A stretch of DNA of 44,768 nucleotides. Source: Xylographa opegraphella (Eukaryota). Location of the stretch: positions 124,001 to 168,768 of the forward strand of contig JALDZX010000046.1 of the NCBI GenBank assembly GCA_022813865.1. The letters run 5' to 3'. Each line of letters begins with the position of its first letter. The first letter of the stretch is position 1. The notes beneath the pieces are model-generated. The model made no database searches. It was not told the DNA's origin and saw only the letters and a list, made by a program, of their open reading frames with translations. The position numbers and the translations under genes are program-made. Below, piece by piece: positions 5,366 through 37,094 of the stretch.

Positions 5366-5768
5366 TCATGCATTCTGAAAGCTGTCAAGTCTAACGCCAA
5401 TATTGTCAAGAGAAGAACCGTTTGTACTGCTGGAGGAACTGGATGTCGGTGTTGGTGCACAAAGGGTCTCAAATAATGAAACTTTCAGAATAGCTTTGCA
5501 AGGCCATAGGCCATAGCAGCAAAGCCCCCGAATTAAGCAATTCCACAAACTGATCAGTAGAATCTCCATGCTCCTCATATTCGATGCTCTAAAAAGCTCC
5601 CTTGTGAAGGCCGGAAGATTATTTGGCCACTTCCGCAGTGTTGGGTGCCTATTTTCGGCCCATCTACCTCTTGCCTCAAGTTGCTACAAGCCCCTTCTCA
5701 TATCCCAAGACATTGAATCACAACATAGGTCCTTAGCAACCAACAGCTTATGTCTCATAACAAAAAAC

Positions 5769-6544
5769 ATGGCAAACAATCTGTCAAGAGCCAACATTCC
5801 AAGTCGGCTAAATCCGACCGCTAAGGCTTTCGTGCCTTCTCTGCGCTCACCCTTGAGTATCTGGTCACCACTTGACAAACCCGATACTTGTCGGCTATGG
5901 GCAGACGGTATATCGTATCTCGCTTTTCTCTTTCTTCTGCGCTAATAAAGAGATAGAAGTCGCACAAGCCGAACCAGATGGGGAAGGAGAATCAGGATCC
6001 AGTAAGTTTTCAGAATAAATGCGATGAATGAACTATAATTAAGGAAAAACAAGGTCGATCACCACCAGAAAACGTGCTTTCCCTGTCCAAGGAATCAACA
6101 AACACGACGACTGTTAGCATCTCCGGTTTGTCAACGGGGGAAACCCAGCAGAACGAAGGACCAGCAGAGAAAAACATCCTTACGACTGCACTCGACCTGC
6201 CTAATGGAAACATAGACGATAAATTGTTACGGCAACTGAAGCTGATGTCTCTCAAAGATTACATTGTCCGGAGTCACGTAAAAAGCTTGAGAGTGATTCC
6301 AAAGAGACTTGAGCCCACGTTGGAGGCAATCAAGAGTGCCTGCACGGATATAATGGCCTTCGAAGGCATCATCAGCAATTCTCCAGTCGGGGGGCGCAAT
6401 AACGACTTCGCCGAAGCTGTAAAGAATATTCTCAAGGCCGTCGGGAAGCAAGAAGACCTGATAGATATCCTGACAAGGGTGAGAATCAGCACTGAATCTA
6501 GCCTCTACAAAGAAAACATGGGACACTTACTGCACAAAACATGA
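5769..6544 (+). CDS. Hypothetical PAM2-motif protein with CCCH remnant and C-terminal helical domain (cluster member 2), probably 3 exons
   Basis: ATG 5769 MANNLSRANIPSRLNPTAKAFVP is a near-consensus PAM2, followed by TCRLWAD. Introns gtatat..gctaat..tag (~5908-5956) and gtaagt..caag (~6002-6053) join in frame to the 6074-6544 ORF. Confidence 0.65.
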
Positions 6545-9067: not shown

Positions 9068-10271
9068 ATGGAGCGCTCTACAGGAAATATACCTTCAAAC
9101 CCGAATCTTTACATCCAGCTTCCCTACGTCGTGTCTGAGAATCCACCAGTTCCTGTGTACTTGGTTCATGGAGGCGTGCTACAGCCGCAACATCCTCAAC
9201 TTAGCAATCAAATCATCCCCTTTCACCTGAGAACACACTTCACGCCCGAAGCCATTCTTGACCGTGGCAACTTGGTTGCAGTGTCAAGCAACACAACACG
9301 TTTTCCCTTGGATCGCTGTCCCCAACAGCGCTCAGCACATGAAATATTTCACAGGACCGGACTAGCAGATCCAATACCTGACGTACCCAATCTCTCATCG
9401 CTAGGTTTCATGCCGCCTCCAAGTACATGGACGTCGCCAGCTATGAAAGCTTCTAATCAACAAAATTCAGAACAAAATGCAGGTTTTGGCCACAGCCACT
9501 CGAATCCTCAAACGGGTGGGGGGCAATATATACCGTCTGGTCGCTTGACATGCCGCTCTTGGTTCACGAAGGGCGAGTGCGACAAACCTCCAGGCCAGTG
9601 TCGTTATATGCATACGCATAATGGCCAAGGTGTTCCAACATTGCCAGCTATAGAGGTTGATAGTCGTAAGAAAACCTGCCACTGATACGCTCGTAGCCTA
9701 AACTGACGATGTTGCAGAGCCTATCGAAAAAGAAATCTTATGTCGAACAGACTTCTTGCCGCCTTTGCCAAATGTCCGACACTATGAATCACACAGCCCC
9801 GAGTTAAAAGATCCTGATACTCAATCCGCCGGACCGCTGGTTGTTGGCCCACGCTCTTCTTCGCAGCCATACGAAATGAGAGCCAAAATCTACAGCATCG
9901 TTGCACTCAGTAACCGTCTTCAAAGGATGGTGCAGAAGCCTCAGACTCCAGGTTCCAACGGCTCAGGCACGCACCAGAATGGAGCGACGAGTTCTCTTTC
10001 AGTCGAGCTGGCCAAGGCACGAGACTTCGTTCAAGAGCTATACACGGAGTTTCAGACCTATCACACAGTTATTGAGCAAATCCAACCACGCCTATTAGAC
10101 TTCGCCGAGCCGTTGCGCAACGCTGCCCATGCAATGAACATGACCTACCGTGAGTTGTCACTGCTTGAACTTATGAAAATGGCGGCAGATGAAATCCGTG
10201 TGATCATTGGCCGTCATCGAGTTGCAGAATGGTTGACTATTGACGGGAAGAAGTCCTTGAAGCCGTTGTGA
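9068..10271 (+). CDS. Hypothetical CCCH zinc-finger protein with C-terminal helical/coiled-coil domain (cluster member 4), 2 exons
   Basis: Exon 9068-9665, intron gtaaga..aaactgac..cag (9666-9717) and exon 9718-10271 join in frame. It encodes C-x8-C-x6-C-x3-H (CRSWFTKGECDKPPGQCRYMH). Confidence 0.75.
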
Positions 10272-10506
10272 CTGAGAGAATTGCATTGAGCAAGGTGGAA
10301 CACTCGGGGCAGTTCTAACGAGTTTGCAGAGTGCCAGATTTAGACCTTGTACTCCTAGTCGACGTAAGCTGTGTCGATTGGTACTATGTAAGAATCTCAT
10401 TGGTAGATAAATAGGAAATACCAATAAGCGTTGGCAAATCGTATCAGTCAGTCATTCTAACAGTGGTGGCTATATGAATATGAATTAAAGTCCCTTGTCC
10501 AGAGTG

Positions 10507-10558
10507 CTCTTCCCTGACGGCCCTTCCCTGATAGCTCTTCCGTGACAGCGCCTTCTGA
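10507..10558 (+). repeat. Short degenerate tandem repeat (~14 bp, cYcttccStgaYrg, 3-4 copies)
   Basis: ctcttccctgacgg cccttccctgatag ctcttccgtgacag cgccttctga. Confidence 0.6.
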
Positions 10559-10757
10559 AAACACCCGAATCTATCTAGCCGTGAGCACTAAGCACGTTGA
10601 CATGGTAGTCGAGGTCTGGACTGTTCTGCCGCTCAAAAGGATGACAAAGGTCCAAGCATCACTTGCCTTGGTAGACTATCGTTTCGGGAGCTGGCAGTAC
10701 TGACTGCAAAGAAGAACCACCACGAGGAAGATTATTAATGTAGACTTCTGAAGTTAG

Positions 10758-12059: not shown

Positions 12060-13006
12060 TTATATTGCCCCAAGCTCTTTCAGCTTGGCAATCATTCCAT
12101 CTACATCCTTCACTTTGCCTCCGCCCTTCCTTGGAGGCGGTTCTGTCACATGTTAGTAAATAATCTCTAATTCTTTGGCTGTAGGTCCTCCAATGATCAT
12201 CAGCTGGTACATACCCATGACCTTCAACGTCTTTAACCTCGTCTTTGCATCTAACCCTAAGTCTTCCAATGACATCTTCTCCAGCTTCTTCTTCTTGGCT
12301 TTCATGATATTAGGTAAGCTTGCATACCGTGGCTCGTTCAGCCTGAGGTCTGTTGTTATTATCATGGGAAGCTTTGCCTTAAGTGTCTCCACACCCCCAT
12401 CCACCTCCCTCGTGACACTCACGTTCTCACCTTCGAACTCAACTTTGCTTGCCGATGTCGCCTGCGGCCAGTTCAAGAGACCTGCTAGCATCTGCCCTGT
12501 TTGATTGCAATCATCGTCGATACTCTGCTTCCCTAATATTACCAAGTTCCGATCTTCCTTTTCGACCACTTTTTTTAGAATCTTAGCTACCGTGAGTGGC
12601 TCTAGATCGCCTTCTTCATCCGAGTCAAACTCCACATGTATTGAGCGGTCAGCACCCATTGCCATTGCGGTCCGTAGCACGTCGGAACATTTTGTGGGAC
12701 CGGCCGAAAGGGCAAGGATGTCTGCGACAGCTATCTTTTTGCGTTCTCGGATTCGTACAGCTTCTTCTATTGAGATCTCGTCAAAAGGATTCATGGAGTG
12801 TTTGACGCCAGCCTTTTCCACCGCCGTGTTGGATTTGTTGACACGCGGCCGAATCTATGGCAGTCATGTTGGTAAGCTATTACATCTTATGACTAACGAG
12901 GAACTGCGGAATCTGATAATTGGGTAGGGGCTCAACATTATTGAGAGCTTACAGCATAATCAATGACCCTTTTGACGGGGACAAGTATCCGTAACGAGGC
13001 AGACAT
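12060..13006 (-). CDS. ETFB: Electron transfer flavoprotein beta subunit (Cir1/ETFB), 3 exons
   Basis: MSASLRILVPVKRVIDYA, intron, then ...SMNPFDEISIEEAVR...AMAMGAD...GKQSIDDDCNQTGQMLAGLL...DLRLNEPRYASLPNIMKAKKK, intron, then EPPPRKGGGKVKDVDGMIAKLKELGAI*. Confidence 0.96.
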
Positions 13007-13298: not shown

Positions 13299-14572
13299 CT
13301 AGAATTTATCCCACCCATCGTCCCCCCATTCATCCTTCACGCCGCCGCTCTTCATCGCCGCAGTCCCAATGGCGCTGCTCTTTTTCACAGCATTGCTGCC
13401 AGTCCCCAAATTTCGCTCATTGCTGGAAGATCCGAACGAATCCCAGAAGTCCTTCTTCTCCGGTTCAACTGTCCCCCTTTCCAATGTACTACTATCGCCA
13501 GTACCCTCGACAAACTTGTTAAATTGCTCTGCAGCCCCTTTCGTACCTTTTTGCACGTTTTGGGCCACAGCTGTAGCGGTGAGGCGAGCTTGTGTTGCAA
13601 GATCTGCTTCCGCAAGCTATTAATGTTTATCAGTTCTGACCAACATGCGGATAGGTGCCTTGTATCACGGGGATCCGGGTACGTGCCTTCTGCGCTGTAG
13701 GCTGTATGTATTCTTCGTTCAAAGTCTTCGCTCCCTTTCCTACCGTAGCAGTAAACCACCCAAACCCCTTGGTTAGGGCCGCCACAGGATCTTTCTGGAA
13801 CTCGTCCACGCCGGGTATAAACGTGGTCCCTTTTCCGCTACTGCTACTGGGCTCTGACATTGTACCCCCAAAGCCTGTGAACTTCCCTCCTTGATTTGGC
13901 GGCAGATCCGCCGGCCTCGTGGCATTCTCGTTTCCAAGCTTCGCAAAGTATGCCTCATTCTTCTCCTTCCGTCCTCCCAGTCCACTGACAGCAGGTGAAC
14001 CAGATCTAGCTGGCGATGCACCTCGCAGCGGAGTTGTGCTTCTCTCCATCGCAGGAATGACCTTCCTCTCCTTCTTCAGCGGCACGTACTCTCTCCCGTC
14101 CACCTTCGCACTCAGTCTCTCCTTGTACTCTTCCCCAACGACTCCAGTATACTTTTCTTCAACGCCCATAGTCTCCCAGGCTCCCTTTTGGCCCGCTCCA
14201 CCTTCAGTATGGCCTTCCCAGAACTCCTTCCACCGAGTATTGCCTCCCTCTTCCATGCGCCTCACCTCGCCAACCTTAAAACTATCCATGCTAATGCTAC
14301 GTACAAACGAGATGTGTACGCCAAGGCCGCGATGTATGCCGGCGCATGAGAGGCAGATAAAGGTGCCGAATTTGGGCGAAGCCCATTGTGGGGAGGGGGC
14401 GCCGCAGTCGATGCAGCTGGTGTTGCCTGAAAGCTTTTGGAGGGCAAGGAGCTGCGAGACTGATTAGTTTCTGCGGCAATAGTGTCAATTGGTTGCTAAA
14501 AGAGCCGCCATATCGGTTGGAAAGGAGAGAAAAGTCTACTTTGCTCTTTGTCTCTGGATCGACTTCCCACAT
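13299..14572 (-). CDS. GCS1: ADP-ribosylation factor GTPase-activating protein (Gcs1/ArfGAP1), 3 exons
   Basis: MWEVDPETKSK, intron, then the ArfGAP zinc finger CIDCGAPSPQWASPKFGTFICLSCAGIHRGLGVHISFVRSISMD. It also has the ALPS-like ALTKGFGWF segment and a DEWGDDGWDKF tail. Confidence 0.95.
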
Positions 14573-17068: not shown

Positions 17069-19179
17069 ATGAGTAATGACAGCATGGGGGAAGGGTATGT
17101 GGCAGAACGCCGCAGGGCTCTGGTGCTGTATGGCTCTGAGACTGGCAATGCGCAGGACATTGCAGATGAGATGGGACGAATGACAGAGAGGTTGCGTTTC
17201 TTGACTAAGGTTGTTCATCTGGACGCTGTCGAGCCTGTATGTCACTACTTACTCCGCTGCGAGGGACAAAAAATACTGACAGAGTCAGAGTATTCTATTG
17301 GACTATAGCGTGATTCTTATTTCTATATCTACGGCCGGACAGGGTGACTTACCCAACAATGCTCGCCGATTTTGGAGCATGTTACTCCGCAAGAAACTGC
17401 CACAAACTTATCTCCGAAATGTCCAGTTCGCGGTTTTTGGCTTGGGAGATAGCTCATATCCCAAGTACAGGCAGCCCTTCATCCTTATTCAACCACTACA
17501 TTAACACTGCATTCAGATACAACTTCGCAGCGCGTAAATTGCAACGAAGATTGACTCAACTTGGCGCAGAAGAACTCTTCTCTCATGGTGAAGGGGACGA
17601 GCAACATCCAGAAGGGTATTCAAAGCTTGGCGATATTCTATAGAATTTACCGACTGACTTCAACCTTAGGTATGAGTCTTCTTTTATCCCATGGCTGAAA
17701 AGTCTCCATGAGCATTTGTTAGTACAATACCCCTTACAGGATGGAGTGGAGCCCATTCCAAGCAGTCGATTGCTCCCACCAAAGGTGATCCTTACCCTTG
17801 ATGGGAAAGACAAGATTATGAATAGACAGTCTGCACATATTCTCGAAAGCTTTCCAACAGATCACGTAACGATCAAGAAAGCCACAGTGCCGCGGGCGCC
17901 AGCTCTTAGTAAATTCGGGTGTGGCAAGCAAGATATAAATTCTCCTGTAGAGCTGAAAGTTACGCTTGAAAAAAACCAGCGCATCACTCCTGATGATCAT
18001 TGGCAAGATGTTCGTCACCTTCAATTATCGGCCAATGGATCTTACAGCTATGGGCCCGGCGACGTTATTACAATTTCCCCCCAAAATGCCCCTGAAGATG
18101 TCGATCAGATCATAGATCTCATGGGATGGAATGATATTGCAACACTGCAGATATGGGTTTTGTCACAAGGCGAACCCATATCTGACATTCCTCAAGTTTC
18201 TTCTTTGGTTGACGACCACGATTCCAAACTCACTCTGCGATCGTTGCTAACTGATCATGTCGACCTGAACGCCATCCCACGTCGCTCATTTTTCTCTCTT
18301 ATCGTCAATTTCACTACAGACGAATTCCAAAAGGAAAGACTGCTGGAATTCACAGACCCAACATTCACCGATGAACTCTATGACTACACTACCCGTCCAC
18401 GGCGCAGCATTCTGGAAGTTTTACAAGAGTTCGACACTGTTAAGATACCTTGGCAATGGGCTGCTGTTGCATTTCCAAAGCTTCGGGGACGGCAATTCAG
18501 TATCGCAAGTGGAGGAGAACTTAAGTACGGCGAGAATGGCGCAACGCGTTTTGAGCTTCTCGTGGCTATTGTCAAGTACAAGACTGTGATCAAGAAGGTC
18601 CGTCAAGGAATTTGCACTCGATATCTGGCAGGATTACTTCCCGGGACCTCATTACGGGTGTCATTACAAAGGGGAGACTTGGGCATTGCAAAGGCTGATG
18701 CCAGCAAGCCAATTCTCATGATCGGACCCGGTACTGGAGTCGCCCCAATGCGGTCGTTAATTTGGGAGAGACTACACTGGACACATCTCTTACAAAAGTC
18801 TACCAATGGTGCTGTATTGGGCAAAGCCATTCTACTTTATGGCTGCCGCAATTATAAGGCGGACTTCTTTTTTGGTGGCGAATGGGAACATTTGAAGCGA
18901 AAGATACCCTTAGAAGTCTTCACAGCATGCTCGCGTGACCAAATAGAAAAGAGGTACGTCCAGGATCTAGTTAGAGAACAGAGCAAGCTTGTCTATAAAC
19001 TTCTCCACGAGACTAGTGGCATTGTCTATGTCTGTGGCTCTTCTGGGAAAATGCCCTTGGCTGTCCGTGAATCCCTAGTTGAAGTTTTCCAACATAACGG
19101 CAGTATGGACAGAGATCACGCTGAAGACTATTTAACGCGCATGGAGAAAGAAGGCAGATACAAACAAGAAACATGGTAA
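17069..19179 (+). CDS. TAH18: NADPH-dependent diflavin oxidoreductase 1 (Tah18/NDOR1), CIA-pathway electron donor, 4 exons
   Basis: Flavodoxin motifs LYGSETGNAQD, STAGQGD and FGLGDSSYPK; FAD motif RQFSIAS; NADPH motifs IGPGTGVAP, YGCRN and YVCG; C-terminal RYKQETW. Confidence 0.95.
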
Positions 19180-23056: not shown

Positions 23057-23560
23057 ATGATAGCTACAGACGTCTGCATATGCTATGGCTCCATCTCCCC
23101 AAATTTGATCGCCAATGCGGATGTCGGGCATTCGGGGTACTGCCATCACAACCCTAATTTTGCGAATGAGCTTTTGACGCCCGTACCGACTCCGAGTATT
23201 CCAGGTTTTACCCCACGATATTCACCATTCCCGAACAATACTGCATTTACAAGCGAACGCAATATGACTGCGGACTGTCACCCCGACCGACAGTACGGAC
23301 GTTTGAGCCTGAGTACTCTCGGTCGACCACTAAGCATAACGAACATGTCTACGACTTGTTCGACTGGAATGTCAATAGGTTCCTCCTTTGGTTATGAAAG
23401 AAGTGCAATTGAGTCACTCATGTGTGCAAAGCCACCACCCACGGTAGGATGGTGGGAGTGTCATTCTTGCCATTGGGCAAATAATCCTTCGCTGTACCCA
23501 AGGATCTGTTCAAATTGTAACCATAAGAGGTGTTCATCCTGTACTGTGCGGAGTTATTGA
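23057..23560 (+). CDS. Small hypothetical protein with C-terminal Cys/His zinc-ribbon module (WxCxxC...CxxCxHxxCxxC, module B); true start uncertain
   Basis: The C-terminus reads GWWECHSCHWANNPSLYPRICSNCNHKRCSSCTVRSY*. There are several in-frame ATGs (23057, 23263-23420 region). Confidence 0.6.
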   Translation: MIATDVCICYGSISPNLIANADVGHSGYCHHNPNFANELLTPVPTPSIPGFTPRYSPFPNNTAFTSERNMTADCHPDRQYGRLSLSTLGRPLSITNMSTTCSTGMSIGSSFGYERSAIESLMCAKPPPTVGWWECHSCHWANNPSLYPRICSNCNHKRCSSCTVRSY

Positions 23561-24519
23561 TTAGGGTCAACAATTTGATGGCACGACAACGGAGCATGAC
23601 AGATTATACACAGATGTAAGAACTACTAACAGGATTGATTATATTGTGGGAACACTCGTTTCAAGATGTTCGGGCTTCCTTTTGATCGAGTGTCGTCGTT
23701 GCTTCGGTACATGTTATTCAGGATATCATTCTCACATTCGGCGTCAGATGACGGGGTTAGTCTTGCATAGCGTGGAGCCATACTTGGGATTTCTTGTCGG
23801 CGGTTTGTTTGATTATCAGACATTCGACTTGATTGACGGGATTTGGATACACGCATGAGGCACTGGCCTGCTGGTTTTGGCTGGACGCAGCGCATTCACA
23901 TTTGCTAGATTTCATGGATATTGTCTCCGTTGGCGTCCTGGCGTCGATCTGTATCTCTTTTTGAAGTCTTACCTCCAAGGGGTTTGGTTGTCTCAGTGGG
24001 TGTCGTGGTTTTGTGGTCGATGTGTATTTCTTATGAGCTATTTTTCTATCTCGTGCTTTTTACTTGGCTGTGCTTTTCATCGTCCTTGCCTTCAGGGGCC
24101 ACATTCGCTTCTTGCGTATTTTACCATGGCGTTTAGCTAGATTTCTTTACTTTACGACAACTTTATGTTCACGATCATTCAACGAAGGAATTCCGAACCA
24201 ACTTTCATTGCAATGATTGTGGTCGATAAAATGACAACCTCGTAGCCACGAAGTACTCGCAGTGTAAGCGCCGTTTCGGTATGAATGTGCCCAGAACATC
24301 GGAAAGACCAGTGCCTACGCGGCTCCGCTGTACGCCATGCTCGACTCTGGCTCCCATTTAGTGCCACTAACCCGCTGCCTTGTCCAGCGATGCCTTCGCT
24401 CCCACCCGCCAGTGCTCACGCTTTGAAATAGCAACAAACGCCACGCTCATAAACACGTCTCCACGATGGGAAAGTGTATCGGTACAAATGCCATGCCAGT
24501 ATTTGTTGATGCATACATA

Positions 24520-26348
24520 CTATCGTACAATGTCCTCCTCATAGCCGATCCGTCCATTAGATACATCGGACCTTCTCTCGGCCATCTGCTCCGTAGGCAC
24601 AGATTCTTTCGGTCTACTATGACGCCTCGAATGATGCCGGGATCGCCGCCGCCGCCTATGTTGTCTATGATTTTCATCGCCGTTGTGAGTAAATGACAAA
24701 CCAGCTTCCTCACGCATGCGCTGCACAACAGGGCCGAGCTCAAACGCGCTTTCACCGCTGTTGTGGTCGCAGCATGGGCTATAGTTCAATGCGACAAGCC
24801 AGTCGAAGAGATTGGTGCCCATCACGGATTTGAAGTTTCCGTAGTAGCCTAGGTCGTAGGGATTTTCGCCCGCTTTGCTGTGTAAGATGGCGAAAGTGCG
24901 TGGAGGGACGGAGGGTGTGCCTGCCGGTGGTGGGTTCAGGGGATAGGTGATGGTTTGGAAGGGGACGTGGTTGGGAGTTGCAGGTGGGCGTGAGATGTGG
25001 ATGGCCAAGGTCCAGATCTTGGTTTGGCGGCTGAGGTTTTCGACGGATGTTGTGTTGAGGAGGACGAATTGAAGGGAACTAAGGGACATGCCGAGGCTGA
25101 AGAGGGCGAAGAGCGCGGCGCTTGAGTGGGTCAGTACGATCATTGGCGGGCGAAGAGGGAAGGTTCTGTGAGACTGACAGAGCCATAGTCACTACCCAGT
25201 GTCCGCTGAGACCCTGGTTCTATTGATGAAGAGGTCAGTAAGGGACAAGGCTACTGATGCATCGCGGCGACGTCGGATTAAGCATGAAATAGTGGCGCTC
25301 CAGTTTGATCTGGAACTTCCGCTATTGCAAGGACAAGGGTGCGAGATGATGGGTATGTTTGAAGTGGTGTGAGGGATATATAATGGTGCGCGAACGAAAA
25401 GTCGGCACGACTTACCCTGCTGCTGGCTTCCTTCGTGAAAACGGCAAGGCAAGTTAGGACGAAGACGCAGTACACAGCGGTCCAGCTGTTGAATTGCACA
25501 AAAAACTTGAAATTCGTTTCCGAAATAATCCCACCCACCCTATGCAGAAATAGTTAGATACTTTACAGAAGTGAAACGGATGATAGCCCTCTGAAAAGTC
25601 CAGATTTCCAAAAGTGATACTTCGGAGAGCAAACTTAGGCATTCAAAAACTGCTTACCATGGACAGAAGTGGTCCATCTTCCGCACACACCGCTCAACTT
25701 CTCTGCAGTGATGCGTTCTGTCTGGCTTCCATTGCATGCACATGGAACACCAAATGGGTCGTCCATCTCCTTCACAAACGAAGACCTCTTTCTTCCAGAA
25801 ATCTTCTAGCCCTGGCGAGTCGGACTCAGGACCGGGACGTCCTCCAACAATACCCCTTGATTGAGAATGGTCGTTGATGTACCCTGGCCCACCAATACCT
25901 TTTTCCAAGTCTCGGCTGGCCGTTTCGTCGGAGCCATCACTGCCTGATCTCCTTTTCCCACTTCTCGAATGTACCCGAGGAGCTTTCGCCTTTCGATTGG
26001 CATAGAACAAAGGTCCTCGTTCGACATAGCCAGGATTACTAAAAACTGCAAATAATATTCGAAAGTATGTGGTGGCGACACTGAAAAGTAGAATGAAGTA
26101 TATGACCAGTATGGCGCTTGCAGCGCCAGGTCGAGACGTTTGAGAGGCCACTGGGGGATCGAGGAGATAGTCAACTGTGTTGCATACCATCAGTCAAAGT
26201 CCCCGTCCGTACTATCATTTGAAAGATGAGTGCACTGACTGCAAAGAGGCCCGGTAATTACAAATGAAGCATAGCAGACGATACCAATCAGAACCGAGGG
26301 AATAACACGCGCAGTCCAAACATTCGCTGCCTTCTGGTTAATAACCAT
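24520..26348 (-). CDS. PFA5: DHHC palmitoyltransferase, Pfa5 type, multi-exon
   Basis: ATG 26348 [24 protein letters not shown] helices, [52 protein letters not shown], then NTTSVENL and [16 protein letters not shown]. Confidence 0.9.
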
Positions 26349-26509
26349 CGCAGGAACGGAAGAGAAACTTTGAGCGGCAATAAAAAGGAAACGAAGTCAA
26401 GGCAATGAGAAGGAAACGCAGTCAAGGAGGACATAACGGAAATAGCAATGTCTATTCCACGACCTACGCCTATCAGCAGTGGAATACATCCTAAAGTCAC
26501 GTGTCGCTC

Positions 26510-26549
26510 GAGGCCCAAAGTGGTGAGGCCCAAAGTGGTAAGGCCCAAG
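26510..26549 (+). repeat. 15-bp tandem repeat (~2.7 copies) upstream of PFA5
   Basis: gaggcccaaagtggt gaggcccaaagtggt aaggcccaag. Confidence 0.75.
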
Positions 26550-28373
26550 ACCCCGCTCGTCTTCGTCAACCCATAACCTGAAGCTCTTCTTCTTTCTCCA
26601 CTCTTGAGGTCGTCATCCTCTTCCCATCGTTCGGAGAGTCTGATCAACAGTCTCATTACAGCAATTTGTTGCAGATGGCTTGTTCGAGAACCACTCGCAC
26701 TTGCACGGTGCAGCGATTAACACTGCCATCAGGCTTCCACTGAAGCCTTTTGAGCAAGGCAAATCAGGCAAGTGTAGTCTGCGTTTGACTTTTCACTTTA
26801 GCTATTAATCTCCGACCCTCGTGACTGACTTGCCTCATTCCTAGTACAATCATTGTTGGAACTTCGACAGCTGGTCCTAATTCTCTAAGTTTCCGGCAGC
26901 GGCCAGCATACTCCGCGAAAGCTACGGGGTCTCGCAAAGCATGCAGTTGCAATTACCTCGGTATGCCTTTGATTGATCTGGAAAGCCTTATCATAAAGGA
27001 ACACTCTTGTTGGGGGCTGAGGCGACGCTTGGAAAACATGGTCAGAGTTTGAGAGCACTCAAGGATAAGCTTCCAACCACCGCTTCTCCATTATGGGAAT
27101 CTTGCGAGTCTTCTATGGCCTATGACAATTGGGTTGAGCAATATGACTCAGCCTCATTCTAACCTGTGGCAACAATACGAGACTGGTGTAAATGGTGCCA
27201 GGGATGGTATTCAGCCTTTCCTCCAGCCCGAAGGATCATTGCTCGTTGTTCAGGATGTCAACTTTGTGGCTGAATTAAGCTTCAATCCACACCGTTGATG
27301 GACTCCGTCGAGGCTAATTGCACTGGCTGAACGTACTCATCCATGACCTCAGGCTTGAAATCCATGTGTCGTGGCCAATCGTTCAACACGCATTGCGCGT
27401 GGCAGTTCTCTTGTGTGCAGGTGTATTTCGATTCTGTATATCCCTGCTTCTGCAGAGCCCGCTACCTGCGTGGCAGTGCTGTCTTTTATCTTAGTATTCA
27501 ATTACACAGCGGCTTCCTGATTTCTTATGAAGCTGTTGATGCCTAGCTAAATGATCCTGATGAACCAGTATCATATCTTGGTTAGGGCGGAATCCTCTTC
27601 TTTCCGGAAGGATCTCACCCTGATCTTCTCCTTCCTAGCTTAGGTCTCACCTTCTCTCTGTCATTCTTGCAAAGACATGCGATAGTGCTGCCTTAATGAT
27701 ATTGATCTATTTCGACTATGCTATGCTTGCTGACACTGATGTCCTGGCAAATGTACGGGACGATCTTAGGATCGAACAAACAAAAGACTGACTGTCCTCA
27801 AGCTAAACATCATTTGTATTAATATTCTGTATGCACTTGTTGTAACGAAGATGATATTTGTCTTGAGTGGTGTTCTAGGTGCTTGGATTCATGTTCCATG
27901 ATGTCCAGTGTTTTGTCTACTGGATGGTCTTTGAGCGAAACTCTTGTGGTTTAACCATTTCACAGTGGCGGCCGTCCTGTCTTCGGACAACAAAAATCAC
28001 GCGACTTGACCTGGAGCCACCTTGGTGCCTATACAGTTCCCACATCACTCGTGGCGATATCCTGGCCGTTTTGCACAGCCCATCCTGCTGCCTCATTTTC
28101 GGGTCTTGAAGTTCTTGACATTGCAACGTGGTTCCAGTGCAGAATCTGTGTTGGTGCATCTGTCAGCTCATCTTGCACTGGTGTATCCTGTGGAATTTCA
28201 CTTCAATCCGTCTAAGCTTCTCGGTATTACCGACGATCCCGGCCTACCGAGTGTGGAAGCTTCTGCGGACTATCCTGTCGTTAATGCTTTCTCCGGCTAT
28301 TCATAGTCCCATCGGCGAAAGCTAAGGCATGAGCGGTGAAGAAGGTGCGACCTTTTCAGACCGCAGCCCGCTC

Positions 28374-28380
28374 TATAAAT
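28374..28380 (+). promoter_or_regulatory. Putative TATA box of the 28537 gene
   Basis: TATAAAT ~160 bp upstream of the ATG. Confidence 0.4.
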
Positions 28381-28536
28381 GACCTGTGTTCCCTGCCATT
28401 GCATTGCTTCTGATATCTATACGGGTATTTTCTCGTTCGGACGCTTTTGATTTATCAACTACATAAGGAGGTATACTCAACTCATTGCAACTGACGGACT
28501 TTCGCATTACGACTAGTACTTCAACACCATTTGATC

Positions 28537-28983
28537 ATGCCTCCTGTTTGGCTATGGAGGTGCGGACACTGTGGTTGGGAGCCAATGACGAAAGGTATTG
28601 ATCTTCATTGCTGCTCCTGCGGTCGAAGGGAGGACGGTTCCGCGGTGTATTACAAAGCGACCAACAAGACTGGCTATAACTACAGTGTGGACACAAATCA
28701 AATCTATATACGAAGCGATTCGATTCTCTTTCCACCCCCAACCTCATACTTTCCGGAGTCTATCAGAGGCCACATAGAATCCGAGGAATATGGTCCTGGT
28801 CTACGAAAGCAGACACCACGTTATAACTTATCAGCTCCACCACCAGTCTACCAACCCTTCACTTACGGGCCGCCGCAATGGTGGTGGTGCTGCCAATGTA
28901 AAGACGGTCCCAAATCTGCAAGACTTCAGCCGAGATGTGTCTTGTGTCAGCATATTGCTTGCAGCTATTGTTCAAAGGTGTGA
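28537..28983 (+). CDS. Small double zinc-ribbon protein (module A + Pro/Tyr-rich linker + module B)
   Basis: MPPVWLWRCGHCGWEPMTKGIDLHCCSCGRREDGSAVYY...WWWCCQCKDGPKSARLQPRCVLCQHIACSYCSKV. A probable intron at the 3' end (gt..gctaac..tag, ~28978-29057) may alter the last residues. Confidence 0.72.
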   Translation: MPPVWLWRCGHCGWEPMTKGIDLHCCSCGRREDGSAVYYKATNKTGYNYSVDTNQIYIRSDSILFPPPTSYFPESIRGHIESEEYGPGLRKQTPRYNLSAPPPVYQPFTYGPPQWWWCCQCKDGPKSARLQPRCVLCQHIACSYCSKV

Positions 28984-30412
28984 GAGCGGAATGACGCTAT
29001 TATCGGTTATAAATATCCCGTTTCTCCATTCGTGTACCTAGCTAACCTCTTGGGTAGAAATAAACCTTCCTCCTCCTTTAACGATTATTCAACAAAGCCT
29101 CCTGTTGAACAATATATCTACGTTATTAGCTTCACACTTTAGATCTTGCTCTGCGTTCGACCGAACTCCTGCAATTATGCGACTCATGGCTTCGTCAATA
29201 TAGACTTACTCTCCTTTGAAACAACGATGCTCAAGTTTTATATAGCCACGTACATGCTCTTCAGGCGTAAGGTTACCTTTTAATATTTGGGCGTTTATGC
29301 ATGGGTTGATGAATTTATATGCTTATTGGTAACCGGTACTTTGTCATTCTACTGTAGTCTCGTATTCTATTTGACAATCCGAAATCGCTTGGTCGACTCT
29401 GAATAGACTCGATTCATCATGTGCTTACTATGCATGCACGACCTGCCAATGTGTACCTTGAATATGCCCCACTCCCCTCATATTCAGTCTTGCGTTGTTT
29501 GCTGCAGTATTTCAGCCTTCTCGAATATACCATGGAAGCTGGGAAAGAGTTTCAGGTCAGGCTTATTTCAGCAGTCTTCGTATTCTTTGCGTGCGAAGTT
29601 TGCCTTATCAACCAGATTCAATCTGCATATCTTGTGCACACGTTTCAGCCACTATGTATTGCCGGCAATATGTATATTCGCCAAGAGCAATCTGCGTCTG
29701 CAGCCTGATGCAGCCAGTTAAGTACCTGGCACGAGCTGATCCGTATCAGGGACAGAGAACATGCTTGTCATGTTCCTTGTCCGGCCGTGTCAATCTGCAG
29801 GTACTGTGATATTAAAATATCGAATGCTGAGATCTAAGATGGAATATACACGGTCGGTCTACACGATTTCTGTCATATGATACAACATGGGTTATTGATA
29901 TCGAGAGTTACAGAATAAGCAGCACAGTATCACTGAACCGCGAGAATGGTCTCACCGCAAATTCTCGCTTCAAATTTCAGGCATCGCCTTCAGCAAGTGA
30001 CGTGGACAGCGACGCCTTGATTCAAGGTTATCTCGCGGCCTCCGTAACAAGGGCTTCTGACTCGGAGGCACTGTAACGCCTTGTACTTTGCCCATTATGG
30101 GCATTGACAGTCCAACCACTGCTGGTCATCAGCCCCTCCGGCTTCACCGCTGCCGGGACGATAGGCAACGCTGGAGGCCAAGGTGTTTGAAGTCAGTGTA
30201 TTAGCCTTAATTCATCATCGAATGAAGGCCTCATTTCAAAGTGGATCTAGCCGCCTAACCCATTTCCTTATTGAATGCCCCTTTATTTCGGCAACCCCTA
30301 TTCGAGATGCCTATAATGGTGCTTTAGCTACGGCTGAACCTGTCGCTTAGTCTGAGCTAGGCAATCACGCGAGGCGGATTCGATTGCCTTGGATCCGCTT
30401 CCTGAAGCTTTC

Positions 30413-30419
30413 TATATAA
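30413..30419 (+). promoter_or_regulatory. Putative TATA box of the 30593 gene
   Basis: TATATAA ~180 bp upstream of the ATG, followed by a CT-rich tract. Confidence 0.4.
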
Positions 30420-30592
30420 TCGACCCGATCTCTCTCTGTGACGCTGAGCAGATCACTCATCAACTCACTACTTCATCTCCTCTCCGACAGTCAACGTGGT
30501 TCGAACCTCCTTTCCAAAAAGACTATTCCTGAGACCACTACTTCCGTACCACATCTTGAACTTTGCAAATACCGCAAAATCATTTCATCGGC

Positions 30593-30769
30593 ATGCCTCA
30601 ACCGACTGCTGGCATGCCTGTCAGGGCTCAGAAAATCACGGTCTGGTTCTGCGGGTGGTGCCGCTTCGGACCAATGACTAAAGGACTCGATCACTTTTGC
30701 GTCAACACGACCTGCCGAAAACGAGAAGACGGTTTTGCAATCTACCAAACACAAACAGTAAGGCGTTGA
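30593..30769 (+). CDS. Zinc-ribbon microprotein (module A only, 51-58 aa)
   Basis: MPQPTAGMPVRAQKITVWFCGWCRFGPMTKGLDHFCVNTTCRKREDGFAIYQTQTVRR* is a clear paralog of the N-terminus of 28537. Confidence 0.72.
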   Translation: MPQPTAGMPVRAQKITVWFCGWCRFGPMTKGLDHFCVNTTCRKREDGFAIYQTQTVRR

Positions 30770-32629
30770 AGCTGTAAGTGCATGTCTTCCGCTTCGTCTA
30801 TCCCGTTCTTACCAAGAATGTCAGTGCACGGCTTCTTTACTCCCCGACCGAATCAACGAGTCTCTTGGGCACTACTCAGCGTATCATGTGAGCGATGATG
30901 TTTTCCAGCATAGCGTGTTCGTGGGTGGCGACTGCCGTGGCATCGAGTTTCAAGCGCGGTGCATTGGTCTGGCTTGCATGGGTGTGTCGTCCGGGCATAG
31001 CAATTTTGGGCGCGGCGTGGTTTGGCATGGCTTGCAAGCATTGGGAAACGGCGGTACCACTACTGTGATGACGATGGCGTTGAGGTCGGCGTTGGCGTTT
31101 AGTGCTTTGTTCTTCAGGCTCGACGAGGCTTCTAGCGCCTCGTGTCTTCTTGGCGGGTTGGTTTTGTGTCATTCGTTTCAGCAGCGGACAGTCTAAAGTT
31201 TGGTTCCTCAGCTGAAATCCATACCGAACCTTGAATAGGGGGCCGCAAACGCCGACCTTATATGACTCCTACATCGCAGAACCTCATTCCTCAACCCTGC
31301 CTAGCGGTCAGCCCTCCCGTGCCTCAGCCGTAATTCCTGAAAGTATAGCCGGTCGCCCGGTGGGGAAACGGCGACTTGAGTGGAGCACCTTCGTCATGGT
31401 TCCTCCTCCGCGTCTGGGTCGCCCACGTTAATCTGTCGACCTGGCAGCGAGGCGCAATGAACCCTATGAGTAATTCAATTGCTCCTGCCTGGATTGGCTC
31501 GACTTCCCCCGAGGCGCAATGAACCCAACAATTCGTGATACCCCGGTGGATACCTGACCCTTCCTCAACGAGCACGTCTCTACCTCCGGATTCCTTCCCG
31601 GTCAAGAAGCCTGATGATCCTTCATCCATCTGCACACAGATCCGTAGGAGCAGTCGTGCAAAAGAAGCCCGGAAGAACGCCGCAGGCAATTCCTTCACAC
31701 TCCCATGCTCCGCCGCCAGCCCTTCTTACTACCCACCGCTGAGGAAGACACAAAACCCGTACTCCGCGAGCGACCGGAACCTCCCAGCACTCGCACCACG
31801 TACTGAGTCACGACCCCATGTAGCATCCGTACACCGCGCCTCCGTCCACCGAACCTCAGTCCGAAGGCGGTGAAGGAAAAACAAGGCAAAAAGAATTTCC
31901 TCCCTTACTGCCTGAGAAGCAGCAGCCTGGGCGCACCCCGCCCTTCCAAACACACAAACACCTTCCTCCGCGCCCTCCTCAACCTGCCAACCGCCCACGT
32001 GCTCCCCATTTCCCTCAGCGCAAGCGGCCTCGCCCCGAAAATCCCCTCAGCTCGCCCCTTCCTTTCCCCCTCTCACAAAGCGTGGCTATGACGCGAAAAC
32101 CCCCCCCCTCTCACCCGGCACCCGGATGAGGTCATGAGGCTCCGCCGAACCCCTGCCGTTGCGGCGAAACGCCCGAAGACCAAAAAGTCAGCCTCCGGGG
32201 CGTCTGTTTGCGCCTAAGCGCCCGTGCCCCCCCTCCCCCCAAAACCGAAAACCATGGGAATAAACCAAAAATCGAACTTTTTTGCTTCTCAGCCCCAGGT
32301 TCGCCTAGGCTGCGTCACCGCGAGCCCTTTGCCCCCCATCCGGAGTCCGGTAACGTCGGCGCAGCAAGTCGCGGCGATGGTAAACTCTGGTTCGGGTATC
32401 TCTCAGCCTCTTCTGCTCTACGCCCTGCACGTGTCCTGGGCGTTATCTTGGCCAGGGAGATGCGTAGGGCTGGATGCGGCGTGCACGAGCTCGGTGATTA
32501 CTCGGTCCGAGAGAGAGCTAGGTGGATGGTTTTTCCGATTGCGTTGTTTCGCGCTAAATCAGCAGACTGGAGGACTATGCGGGTGGGTATGTTGCGCATC
32601 CTTCGCGCGATGCGCGGGGGCGTGTCGTG

Positions 32630-32870
32630 CATGGGGTGGAGGTCATGTGCGGCGGGGTGGAGGGGTGGGGGTCTGGTGGGGGTGGGTCGGGAGGGAGAGG
32701 GGGTGGGGAGGAGGGGAGGGGGAGGCGAGGGGATTTTGGAGGTTGAGGGTGGAAGGTGGGATTGGGGAAGGAGGTTGGGAGGATGGAGGAGGGTGCGGAA
32801 TGGTGTGTGGTCTGGTAGGGATGTAGGGATTCTGGGTGATGGAAGTTATAGGGGGCAAGGAAAGGGCTGA
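32630..32870 (+). repeat. G-rich low-complexity tract with many G3-G5 runs (G-quadruplex potential)
   Basis: ggcggggtggaggggtgggggtctggtgggggtgggtcgggagggagagggggtggggaggaggggaggggg... Confidence 0.7.
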
Positions 32871-33196
32871 AGATATAGTCAAGAGTTTGAAGGGTCGGAC
32901 TATATGATGAAGGTATGTGATGAAGGCTTGAGCATCTGATGAAGAATGTGATGTTGGCGAACAACCCTCGTCATGATTCTGAGAAGATCATAAGTGGACG
33001 ATAACGTGTGGTGAATAGGTTCAATGCTCAAAGTACTCTTCATCATTGTCAAATCGTGACAAGTTATCATACACAAGAGTCATCTGCGCACTTTCTACTA
33101 TGCCTGAGATATTTTTCACCATATGTCCTTCCCATCTATATTCCTACGCCAAGCTCCGAACTCCTTCGCCAGTATGTTTCCCTCCCCAAAGGCAGC

Positions 33197-34741
33197 TCAC
33201 GCCTCTCCAGTGTCGAAGACCAAGCTCACCCCGTCGTCGCCCGCAGTGACTATCCTCCCTCGGCCATCATTCTCACTCTGCACAAAGCCCATCACCCCAC
33301 CGCCTTCTCCATCCCCTCGATGGCCTCTCCACTCCTTCACAAGACCCTGCCCATTGGCTGCCGTGCCTCCTCTCGTGTCCCAACGACGGACAATGCCGTC
33401 CATCCCACAACTGGTCAGCAGCCACCCTCCTGCTCCAGATGTATTGCTATTATTCCCTGCCGATGGAGACGGCGAAACAAACTCCACTTTCACAACGGCG
33501 TATTCCTCGTGAGCTTCCCTGATGAGCCGCCGTACTGCAAATCGATGTGCGGTATCGAAGAGTGCTATGCTTCCATCCACACTGCCAGCTGCCAAAAGTG
33601 TCAACGGCGGCTTACTGAAGGCAAGCGTCTCGACCCCATCCGTCTGCGCCTGCAAGCTCGCCAAGATCTGTCCAGCCTGACCACTACTTGATTCGGTAGC
33701 TCCGGTATGCTTTGCGCCACCAGCCTTGTTCTTCGCACCACCTCCCTTTTGAGACTTCGTAGCATTTTCATTGCTGGGCGCGCCAGAGAACAGTCGTGGA
33801 AGGCCAATTATGCGAATGTTTCCTTCCGCTCCCCCTACTGCCACAAAAGCGCCAGTCGGAGCGATTGCAACGCTGTACAGACCTCCTTCCACGGCGAATC
33901 GTTGGTCGTCACCAGTCAAACCGACTATGGCTTGACCTGAGCTCTGACTTGTGATTCCAGATGCCGCTGCTTCCCCAAAAGGATCCCATACATACAAACT
34001 GCCTTCTTCGCTAACAGTAGCCAGTAGCTTTCCGTCAGGGCTCCATGCACCTGCTGTACATGATGCGTTATGTAGGTAATAGGCTTGTAGGGGCTGCAAT
34101 GCCGAAGCAGGGTCCGAGCCCTCGATTGTGTACACCCAAACGCTGCCATCTGATGCGCCAAGAGCTATCGAATTTGGATACGCTGGATTCGGGGATGGAG
34201 CAACCCAATTGATTTCCTCAACTTCTTGAACTTCTGTAAGGAATTTGCATTGCTGATGGGAGAGTGACTGGGGCGGAGGAATGGTATATGCTCGAAGACG
34301 GCCATCAAGTCCGGCAGTACATAGAAACTCTCCGTGTGGGAGAGTGAATGCGATAGCGTTGACGGAATCGGAGTGGCCCTTAAGTTCGGCAATAGCCTCC
34401 AGGGACTTGCGCCCGGGTTCGGGATTTGACTCGTATGAAGTAGGTAGGAGTGGTGAAGGTGTGGCACTGGAAAATACGTATGCCGTATCGTCGCCAGCAC
34501 CAGTGGCTATTATCGATGTATCCAGGGGATGTGATGTTATGCAGAAAAGGGAATCGGTATGCCGGTCGAAGTGGGCTATCGAGTCATTTTCGAGACTTAT
34601 TTCCTGGGTATCATCATCTTCGGGATCAGAGTCCATTGGAACATCAGGATCTGTGGTGATTTCCTCCGCCGCTTCATCGGCGTCGAGCATTTCTGAAGGG
34701 TCACCTTCCTCCCCATCGATGTGCATGTCGTTCCCAGACAT
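33197..34741 (-). CDS. SQT1: WD40-repeat ribosome assembly factor Sqt1 (AAMP-like; Rpl10 chaperone), single exon
   Basis: Acidic N-terminus MSGNDMHIDGEEG...ISLENDSIAHFDRHTDSLF, WD repeats (ATGAGDD, GHSDSV, GASDGSVW, GSVDGSI, GMDGIVRRWD) and a terminal IVTAGDDGVSLVF. Confidence 0.9.
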   Translation of the reverse strand: MSGNDMHIDGEEGDPSEMLDADEAAEEITTDPDVPMDSDPEDDDTQEISLENDSIAHFDRHTDSLFCITSHPLDTSIIATGAGDDTAYVFSSATPSPLLPTSYESNPEPGRKSLEAIAELKGHSDSVNAIAFTLPHGEFLCTAGLDGRLRAYTIPPPQSLSHQQCKFLTEVQEVEEINWVAPSPNPAYPNSIALGASDGSVWVYTIEGSDPASALQPLQAYYLHNASCTAGAWSPDGKLLATVSEEGSLYVWDPFGEAAASGITSQSSGQAIVGLTGDDQRFAVEGGLYSVAIAPTGAFVAVGGAEGNIRIIGLPRLFSGAPSNENATKSQKGGGAKNKAGGAKHTGATESSSGQAGQILASLQAQTDGVETLAFSKPPLTLLAAGSVDGSIALFDTAHRFAVRRLIREAHEEYAVVKVEFVSPSPSAGNNSNTSGAGGWLLTSCGMDGIVRRWDTRGGTAANGQGLVKEWRGHRGDGEGGGVMGFVQSENDGRGRIVTAGDDGVSLVFDTGEA

Positions 34742-35031
34742 AATGATGAAGACTGAGGGAGTCTGCAATTTAATGATTAGCAATGACACGAAGGCAGACC
34801 ATACTGCAACCTACTTATAGGATCTTAAGAGTGCCAATCAGGCGTTGTGACTGCGTTTCTAGAGCAGCTTAGAAATTATCTGCGACTTTTCGATTGTGCT
34901 TCGTCATCCCGCATGCGCAAGCGCTAGTCTACATTTTTTCTACCCCTGACACTGCACATCTCATTGCGTTCTCTATCTTTGATCATTTATCTGATACATA
35001 GAGGTATACATTAACATGTTGGCGCCGATAT

Positions 35032-37094
35032 CTACAATTTAGCACCCCTAGATCTCCTAGATTCCTTGTCCTTATCCCTCAGCATCCGCCGAAGAATTTT
35101 CCCACTCGGACTCTTGGGAACAACATCGATGAACTCGACCTCCTTCAACCACTTATGCCTAGCTTTGTCCTTCTCAACATATTTCTTGATGTCACGAATG
35201 ACAAGGCGATCGTTGTCCTCGAGTCCCACCGACGGAGACTTGACGACAAATGCCTTGGGCCGTTCTCCCGCATCTTCGTCAGGAATGGCTATGACGGCGA
35301 CATCTGCGACCGCAGGGTGGCTGAGTAAGTGGGCCTCAAGCTCTGCAGGCGCGACTTGCATTCCCTAGGGATGACATTAGCCTCGAGTATATGAGCCGCC
35401 AGCACAGTGATGTCACTCACTTTGACCTTGATCAGTTCTTTGAGGCGATCTACTATCCATATGTGTTGGTTCCCCTTTGGACTTTTTCGAACGACTGCCT
35501 CGTCTCCCGTGCGCATCCATCCATCCTGAAATGTCTCGCGGGTGGCAAGGTCATTCTTAAGATACCCAAGTGTTACACTAGGGGATCGAACCAACAGCTC
35601 GCCAGGCTGATCATAACCTTCTATATCTGTGCCTTCAATCGTTACGAGGCGAGCTTCGCATCCGGGCATTAATGATCCAGAGGAGCCAAAATCGATATCA
35701 TCGTAGGAGGTCGAGCAGACCACAGTCGATGTTTCCGTGAGCCCTAATGATTGGTAAGTGCAATTCGTGCTTTCTGCAGATTTGATTCTGAAATGTACCG
35801 TAACCTTGCCGAATATACCATGTTGGATACTGGTCCTTCAACACTGATGCTGTCTCGGCACCCAGGGGTGCTGCACCGGTGAAAACAATTTTGACGCTAC
35901 TGAGGTCGAATTTGTCGCATAGGGCTTTGTTCTTAGTCATGAGGATGATGATCGGTGGTACCTAGGGCAAATGAACATCAGCGTTACAAATCCAATACTG
36001 ACAACATCTACTTTTGTGTTTCATATCACGCTAAAGGGGTACTTACCAGGATAAGAGCATCTATCCTGAATCTTTGTATTGCGGAGAGGTATATTTTGAC
36101 ATCAAACTTGGGCAGATTTATGACTTGATCACCCCTGTACCCGGTGGCATGACATATCACCACGAGTGAATAGATATGGCTCTGTGGGAGTAAGCCTAGG
36201 GTAATTTCGAGAAAGTCGGCGTTGGACGGAGAGTTCTTTTTCATCATATCCCGATATGGCTTTTCGAATGTGGAGATCTGCAGGACATTGGCGATCACGT
36301 TACGATGAGATATCATAACCCCTTTCTATATCAAATCAGAGGCTATCTTGGAACGCTCCAAATGAGAGGGGGAGAGCTTACCGGCAATCCAGATGTACCG
36401 CTTGAGTAACATAGGAATGCGACCTGCCGAGCCCCCTGACCTTCTTCCCATTGTAAGTCTTCAAGTTGTGGGAGGCTCGTTCCTTCCTCTATCAATTGAT
36501 CGACTGTCTTGAAGTCGCTCGGGGTATCTTGTCCGGTAAACTCTTTGGGGAGAGAGATTAAGAACACACGCTCTTTGGGTATGTTTGATTTTGACGCAGC
36601 TTCCAACGCTATGGGCAACAAAGGCACGCATGTAAACAGCGCTTTTGACCCGGAGTTATTCAGTTGATACGCGAGCTCATCCGCAGAGTATGCCGCATTG
36701 GCCGGAGAGGAGATTCCGTTGAGACGATGGGTCGCCCATGCCAGTGTAAGCGTATCAATCTATTCCGACTGCAATTAGGTATGTGCATTGCTTTGTCGTC
36801 GTGACACCGGCCACCTACAGTGTTCACAGTAAACACACCAATGACCTTGTCCCACTCCGTCCCGGAATTCGGTGTCCAGTTGAATTCCTTGGACAGTGCC
36901 TTGGCGAGGTTGTTGACGCGCTCTCGTACCTCGACGGCCGAGTACTCGGTACCGGTCAGCCCGCAGGTGAAGGGGGGCTTGGACTTGTGTATAGGATAAC
37001 GGCCATGCTTCTCGTCGAACATGAACTCGTGGATGGGAACCGTCCAGGGTGGATCGGGTAGCTTGCTCACCCATGAGGGCGGGGTGAAGACCAT
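35032..37094 (-). CDS. Peroxisomal acyl-CoA synthetase, phenylacetyl-CoA ligase / 4-coumarate-CoA ligase-like, 6 exons, PTS1 (-AKL)
   Basis: MVFTPPSWV start, AMP-binding YSSGTSGLP|KGV, QGYG|LTE, RTGD, DRLKELIKVK|GMQVAPAELE, PKSPSGKILRR and C-terminal AKL. Confidence 0.93.

Follow-up and report, generated by a model that had tools for sequence, protein, structure and literature searches.

We conclude that three small open reading frames (ORFs) on the forward strand of a 44,768-nucleotide stretch of Xylographa opegraphella DNA (contig JALDZX010000046.1, positions 124,001 to 168,768; hereafter the window) are probably anciently diverged paralogues of an uncharacterised family of small intracellular zinc-ribbon proteins, with the plan and mechanism set out here. 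The underlying observation, that the three small ORFs are related, is confirmed and lies well beyond chance. In the plan we propose, one ribbon would sit at the N-terminus, typically within a Met-Pro-x4-Trp-x-Cys start, and another at the C-terminus, joined by a fast-evolving, disordered linker of 60–100 residues. Module A would be a one-zinc, four-Cys ribbon closing in a beta-strand. Module B, with seven Cys and one His, would combine an A-like ribbon with an H-x2-C-x2-C tail and a further Cys or His directly behind the first Cys. ORF2 would be an A+B protein, ORF1 would derive from a B+B protein whose N-terminal ribbon was lost or remodelled in the source genome, and ORF3 would be an A-only protein. 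Each ribbon might act as an independent macromolecule-binding knob of RanBP2/NZF-like fold. The frames are open and encode the peptides reported in the initial annotation of this DNA; they and their modules are as follows.

23057-23560, forward strand: ORF1, 167 amino acids.
23057..23152, forward strand: N-terminal ribbon of ORF1 (residues 1-32), which appears decayed or remodelled in comparison with its orthologues.
23453..23542, forward strand: module B of ORF1 (residues 133-162), W-x-C-H-x-C-x12-C-x2-C-x-H-x2-C-x2-C, found by pattern and by profile.
28537-28983, forward strand: ORF2, 148 amino acids.
28555..28656, forward strand: module A of ORF2 (residues 7-40), W-x-C-G-x-C-x12-C-x2-C and then an R-x-D...A-x-Y strand.
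28657..28842, forward strand: linker of ORF2 (residues 41-102), variable and predicted to be disordered.
28882..28971, forward strand: module B of ORF2 (residues 116-145), W-x-C-C-x-C-x-D-G-P-K-x7-C-x2-C-x-H-x2-C-x2-C.
30593-30769, forward strand: ORF3, 58 amino acids.
30644..30745, forward strand: module A of ORF3 (residues 18-51), a complete A ribbon whose second knuckle is C-x4-C.

To assess the relationship, independent hidden Markov models (HMMs) were trained on 69 A and 139 B modules taken from other proteins; neither the window ORFs nor their six orthologues contributed to them. Both were run on the window translated in six frames, 1444 segments in all. The A HMM matched ORF3 (domain E = 2.8e-14) and the N-terminus of ORF2 (7.5e-11), and the B HMM matched the C-termini of ORF2 (2.7e-15) and ORF1 (1.5e-5); the next best segments, at E ≥ 0.24, were noise. 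Because the two models also cross-match (A HMM on ORF2-B, 4.8e-9; B HMM on ORF3-A, 6.7e-5), modules A and B are homologous variants of one core, and the shared core proposed in the initial annotation is thereby borne out. Pairwise comparison by BLASTP gave 19/43 identical residues for module A of ORF2 and ORF3 (E = 8e-11) and a weaker 13/36 for the C-terminal modules B of ORF2 and ORF1 (E = 0.003). The 18/34 identity previously counted for module A, with synonymous differences in PMTKG and REDG (Thr ACG/ACT, Gly GGT/GGA, Arg AGG/CGA, Glu GAG/GAA), is correct. Different codons encode 8 of the 18 identical residues across 32 aligned codons of ORF2-A and ORF3-A, with nonsynonymous divergence (dN) of 0.37 and saturated synonymous divergence (dS) by the NG86 method.

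No fourth copy was found in the window by pattern scan, by tblastn with all relatives or by the A and B HMMs on six frames. A candidate at 24006-24074 on the forward strand, in the spacer between ORF1 and a DHHC gene, has a W-F-C-G-R-C start and continues into a hydrophobic stretch lacking a second knuckle. It was judged a chance resemblance (A HMM whole-segment E = 0.64, best domain 0.3). Several relatives match it weakly by tblastn (E 0.03-0.7).

Could the ORFs be no genes at all, open by chance and patterned with Cys by chance? Their small size speaks for this, as do the lack of a Pfam match and the GC content by codon position, which carries no strong coding signal. Set against this are four full-length ORF2 orthologues of 148 residues (E down to 6e-66), two ORF1 orthologues (E 1e-43 and 2e-42), a family of 138 representatives, and independent HMM matches at E 1e-5 to 1e-15 over the noise level given above. 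The chance reading is refuted for ORF1 and ORF2 by orthologues, family and HMMs, and for ORF3 by the independent HMM alone; we give it practically no credence.

The family was delimited with a profile of ORF2 and its four orthologues, searched against 1.84 billion cluster representatives. At E ≤ 1e-3 it matched 138 representatives, each standing for a cluster at 50% identity, and at E ≤ 1e-10 it matched 26. All relatives that carry a name or taxon label are Ascomycota, mostly Eurotiomycetes. Architectures were assigned by rough regular expressions to 146 sequences (143 relatives and the three ORFs): B 38, B+B 37, A+B 31, A 24, A+A 7, B+A 6 and none 3, the B+A class consisting mostly of B+B proteins with atypical tails. 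Two-ribbon proteins taken together are the commonest state, so ORF2 is a canonical member and not a local fusion. The initial annotation had described one gene fusing modules that its neighbours carry singly; the 31 A+B and 37 B+B proteins, and the uniform 148-residue A+B form of the ORF2 orthologues, contradict it.

Ribbons tend to lie at the ends of these proteins. The first begins no more than 12 residues from Met1 in 66/143 relatives, in 88/114 the last C-x2-C is found at most 6 residues from the C-terminus, and 108/143 relatives are at most 200 amino acids long; P0135 (75 amino acids, A-only) exemplifies the one-ribbon form. Among the 66 relatives with an early first ribbon, 47 start with Met-Pro, as does ORF2. 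A conserved Pro exposed by Met removal could affect protein stability (the Pro/N-degron idea). Larger relatives carry the modules as additions: P0089 has a B module at the C-terminus of a NACHT-type/winged-helix/ankyrin protein, and an A module precedes PHD and C2H2 domains in P0039 and full Zn2Cys6 motifs in P0086 and P0090. P0108, P0120 and P0140 are short models closing with a truncated Zn2Cys6-like start, which probably reflects unpredicted introns. By eye, the start of P0125 resembles the end of a nucleoside-phosphorylase-type domain of NLR (NOD-like receptor) proteins; it has no Pfam match.

These proteins are not generally invisible to annotation. Relatives carry the labels hypothetical or uncharacterized in Aspergillus species, Thermomyces lanuginosus and Circinaria calcarea, and one from Talaromyces marneffei is named 'Synaptotagmin-like protein 4'. 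Since members have already been predicted and annotated, the family does not as a rule escape gene callers. The earlier suggestion that it does fails for ORF1 and ORF2, whose orthologues are predicted in public sets, and for their annotated paralogues; for ORF3 alone a word-based search, of a kind that can miss, gave no called counterpart. The description as uncharacterised holds. In 24 longer relatives the Pfam matches leave the modules themselves uncovered, and literature searches returned no paper on the family among the matches listed. In the ESM Atlas, where feature-space scores below 0.9 are leads only, the cluster nearest to ORF2, automatically labelled 'RanBP2-type domain-containing protein', comprises 110 members from Ascomycota at 150 amino acids and scores 0.93 (203/256 features); an Ascomycota cluster of 58 amino acids (53 members, score 0.87) is such a lead. 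A metagenome scan with a family alignment returned two loci (4473-5870 and 9305-10702), neither of them a family member. Both encode one and the same 465-residue protein of bacterial type, in which a HEIGH metallopeptidase-like N-terminal region is combined with five or more generic zinc ribbons.

The orthologues of ORF2 show where sequence is conserved. The four proteins, from public predicted proteomes, are 67, 69, 67 and 46% identical to it. Residues 1-40 are identical at 21-34 of 40 positions and the linker (residues 41-102) at 15-35 of 62, below either ribbon. Against the three closest orthologues both ribbons are 72-85% identical and the linker 47-56%; against the most distant, P0004, the ribbons are 53% and 72% identical and the linker 24%. 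Together with the synonymous codon differences, this contrast suggests that the ribbons are under selection. A PPxY (Rsp5-binding) motif precedes module B in ORF2 and two orthologues. It was rejected as a family feature, occurring in 6/127 family proteins against 9.2 ± 2.9 in shuffled sequences.

ORF1 has two orthologues, P0005 (180 amino acids) and P0006 (181 amino acids), each 53% identical by BLASTP and with the start conserved. Their N-terminus is an intact B-type ribbon, W-x-C-C-x-C...C-x2-C-x-H-x2-C-x2-C. At the corresponding place ORF1 keeps 2/8 ligand positions unchanged (C9 and H30); at one position a Cys has become His, and an in-frame deletion has taken out the final C-x2-C. The other two frames of this region hold no ribbon. 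Several new Cys/His residues are present there, so remodelling of the N-terminus is possible. The C-terminal part is better preserved: residues 127-167 are identical to the orthologues at 31-32 of 41 positions (76-78%), and the linker at 47-49 of 94 (50-52%). ORF1 is thus a B+B protein turned B-only by decay, or possibly by remodelling, and this too tells against the reading of ORF2 as a fusion of modules that its neighbours carry singly.

ORF3 has two candidate starts, at 30593 and 30614, both Met-Pro. Its closest relative in our set is P0027, at 62.5% over 40 residues, and its C-x4-C knuckle variant is common to P0027, P0008, P0026 and P0032. When 224 modules were ranked by similarity, ORF3-A was closest to P0027 (60%), with ORF2-A at rank 8, and ORF1-B came at rank 181 of 224 for ORF2-B. 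ORF3 is accordingly an A-only member of another sublineage. The modules of the window have their nearest relatives elsewhere, so that the genes are old paralogues from different sublineages and not recent tandem copies; the local expansion once proposed for them falls away.

Several points weigh against our account. No Pfam family matched ORF1, ORF2 or ORF3 at E ≤ 10, and 0/119 relatives reached a Pfam gathering score. ORF1 visibly lacks one ribbon that its orthologues keep. A word-based search of proteins of 31-102 amino acids, a kind of search that can miss, found no called ORF3 orthologue, and the tblastn alignment of P0027 to ORF3 runs on weakly past the stop codon (30767-30802), downstream of which about 42 further codons are open in the same frame. 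The second zinc site proposed below for module B is argued from covariation, and the adaptor function from architecture. Given the similarity of P0027 beyond its stop, ORF3 could be a truncated relic of a longer gene. It may be that only ORF2 works, and that the other two are what is left of two-ribbon paralogues in decay, ORF1 having lost its N-terminal ribbon and ORF3 all that followed ribbon A. The degraded ligand positions and in-frame deletions of ORF1, beside intact orthologues, favour this reading, as do the missing ORF3 orthologue and the P0027 alignment. Yet both frames are open with conserved Met starts, and the C-terminal ribbon of ORF1 has stayed closer to its orthologues than the linker has. 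ORF3 even outscores ORF2-A on the A HMM, with its four Cys, Trp, Gly-Pro and tail kept. One-ribbon proteins are, moreover, common in the family (24 A-only and 38 B-only of 146), P0135 among them, and the 58-residue Atlas cluster is a lead in the same direction. We therefore consider it unlikely that ORF1 and ORF3 are relics, and retain the view of three diverged family members.

The fold was predicted with AlphaFold2. For ORF2, modelled from a 34-sequence alignment, the predicted local distance difference test score (pLDDT), in blocks of ten residues, was 89-96 over residues 1-40, 85-94 over residues 111-148 and 46-60 in the linker. The predicted template modelling score (pTM) of 0.32 and linker pLDDT of about 50 give no fixed packing of A against B in the monomer. 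Module B alone (residues 103-148, 45-sequence alignment) reached a mean pLDDT of 83.5. The AlphaFold and Foldseek comparison suggested in the initial annotation thus yielded confident models of both ribbons, and Foldseek returned no match at E ≤ 0.001 for either model; its non-significant rows included HOIL-1L (3b08, E = 8) and, at the top for module B, the RING domains of IDOL and XIAP (E 1.8-2.5). VIA-align against 48,161 chains gave weak scores throughout, as expected because the ribbons are 30-residue domains. Among the matches listed, RanBP2/NZF fingers accounted for 12/50 with the whole model (all on residues 1-45, ribbon A) and 18/37 with module B. They tied in fold score with ribosomal, MCM, rubrerythrin and DUF35 ribbons. 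For both ribbons the best fold matches included the NZF domains of Npl4 (1q5w), TAB2 (7e62) and Vps36 (2j9u), with superpositions covering the whole NZF domain at 1.7-1.9 Å. On these models, the modules are most safely described as zinc ribbons of predicted RanBP2/NZF-like type.

A stricter assignment would make them true NZF ubiquitin-binding fingers and the proteins small ubiquitin receptors. The fold matches just listed, including 3b08, point that way, as does the sequence pattern of four Cys with a Trp before the first Cys in all four window modules. The residues after the second Cys are G-W in ORF2-A, K-D in ORF2-B, H-W in ORF1-B and R-F in ORF3-A, and in most A modules the second position past that Cys is aromatic (His, Phe, Tyr or Trp), by our own comparison the place of the NZF Phe/Tyr. 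The loop between the knuckles of RanBP2/NZF fingers is shorter than 12 residues, whereas the spacing from the second to the third Cys is 12 in 196/224 modules of the family. In PMC11372445, an NZF finger is defined by a Trp and four Cys, a Thr-Phe/Tyr motif and a structural Asn in the stretch from the second Cys to the third. By that definition the Thr is absent from all four window modules, and the Asn is absent from ORF2-A, ORF2-B and ORF3-A and present in ORF1-B four residues after the second Cys; family-wide, Gly-Pro stands at its position. Of the four modules, only ORF2-B has a hydrophobic residue (V, L) in the second knuckle. It is thus quite improbable that these are NZF fingers, and of the resemblance first proposed a RanBP2/NZF-like ribbon is the likely part, while membership of NZF in the strict sense is not supported.

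The other specialised possibility is that the ribbons are RanBP2-type fingers for single-stranded RNA, like those of ZRANB2, RBM5 or FUS, with RNA bound at two sites. It gains from the automatic name of the nearest Atlas cluster and from some relatives in which module A is joined to nuclear domains that bind DNA or chromatin. It loses from the failure of all three ORFs to match Pfam zf-RanBP at E ≤ 10, from a loop two residues longer, and from Gly-Pro where RanBP2 fingers have a conserved Asn (PMC11372445). We hold it to be improbable, and keep to a RanBP2/NZF-like ribbon as the description of both modules.

Module B differs from module A in ways that suggest a second metal. Of 149 tail-bearing B modules, 143 follow the first Cys with a further Cys (130) or a His (13); ORF2-B has Cys there and ORF1-B has His. 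Among 75 A modules, which lack the tail, 48 have Gly at this position and 11 have Cys. The full C-x-H-x2-C-x2-C occurs in 123/149 B modules. From this covariation and Cys/His interchange we infer that the residue next to the first Cys would form a second zinc site with the His-Cys-Cys of the tail. ORF2 would then bind three zinc ions, and module A may be a derived one-zinc form whose tail was replaced by a beta-strand. A PDB sequence search with the module B profile gave no match at E ≤ 10. A weak PDB profile match to the RNF31 IBR domain (2ct7_A, E = 0.036), sub-threshold Pfam matches among relatives to FYVE, B-box and RING-type domains, and the RING rows of Foldseek are compatible with a two-zinc module B and prove nothing.

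What might such proteins do? Our best guess, a tentative one that takes its cue from terminal placement, add-on use and the disordered tether, is that two-ribbon proteins act as flexible bivalent adaptors, with a protein, a ubiquitin-like protein or RNA as candidate ligands. Binding of ubiquitin or of RNA would be special cases of this knob and adaptor idea, with lower odds. A more elaborate version would have module B as an undescribed two-zinc elaboration of the RanBP2/NZF finger and, at the same time, ORF2 with ORF1 and ORF3 in a conserved neighbourhood as a microprotein-style regulatory set, in which one-ribbon proteins compete with the bivalent adaptor for ligands; that combination is a long shot.

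The genes lie among ordinary neighbours. Between ORF1 and ORF2, on the opposite strand, is the following gene.

24520..26716, reverse strand: intron-containing gene for a DHHC palmitoyltransferase (PF01529 matches the exon at 25654-26193, E = 4.9e-11; flanking reverse-strand ORFs).

Spacers measure 1.6-1.9 kb. Other neighbours in the window (3-1124, 12153-12854, 13630-14463, 17644-19179, 33197-34810 and 35289-35837) are ordinary housekeeping genes, of types that include a THOC2 N-terminus, an electron-transfer flavoprotein, an ArfGAP, an FAD/NAD-binding reductase, a WD40 protein and an AMP-binding enzyme. With such neighbours the trio lies in core-genome DNA and not in an accessory region, and to call this DNA gene-poor was an overstatement. 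P0001 and P0006 both come from 26141-base contigs, and P0003 and P0005 both from 99883-base contigs; the equal sizes hint that the linkage of ORF1 and ORF2 is conserved in the genomes of their orthologues. Beyond ORF3, positions 31000-33000 form the most GC-rich part of the window (0.57-0.60) and contain long overlapping open frames (32130-32870 forward, 32218-32826 forward, 32575-32970 reverse). The two frames scanned in this region, 32130-32870 forward and 31324-31725 reverse, had no Pfam match.

If our account is right, there is in Ascomycota a sizeable family, so far unstudied, of proteins of about 150 amino acids with two terminal zinc ribbons, amounting to at least 138 clusters at 50% identity, and one of the ribbon types seems to have a second zinc site beyond what has been described for RanBP2/NZF fingers. 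Because the modules are also appended to NLR-like and transcription-factor-like proteins, hundreds of fungal proteins now called 'hypothetical' would be annotated together once the ligand is found. The local trio is less special than first thought, being a set of old paralogues in a housekeeping region.

One of the closest known systems is PF26652, Zn_ribbon_double ('Probable double zinc ribbon domain-containing protein', Pfam 38.1), likewise an Ascomycota family of small zinc-ribbon proteins, under whose name we found nothing in print. Its Atlas cluster (225 amino acids, 64 members) is a feature-space neighbour of ORF2 (0.83) and ORF1 (0.77), scores that are leads only. PF26652 may already cover the family, which is the main caveat on novelty. 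Generic one-zinc ribbons (ribosomal, MCM N-terminal, archaeal ArnA) have no sequence family relationship to these modules and differ in context, for here the ribbons occupy both termini of free-standing small proteins. The two-zinc IBR and RING domains resemble module B in its eight potential ligands within about 30 residues, and in the weak RNF31 IBR and RING matches. RanBP2/NZF fingers share with both modules a length of about 30 residues, the Trp-x-Cys-x2-Cys and Cys-x2-Cys knuckles, the zinc-ribbon fold as predicted for the modules and the terminal or add-on use. They differ from them in that the window ORFs do not match zf-RanBP at the Pfam threshold given above, in the 12-residue loop, and, on the description in PMC11372445, in Gly-Pro for the structural Asn and in the missing Thr-Phe ubiquitin-binding motif. 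Module B also has its extra Cys or His and its H-x2-C-x2-C tail as a putative second zinc site.

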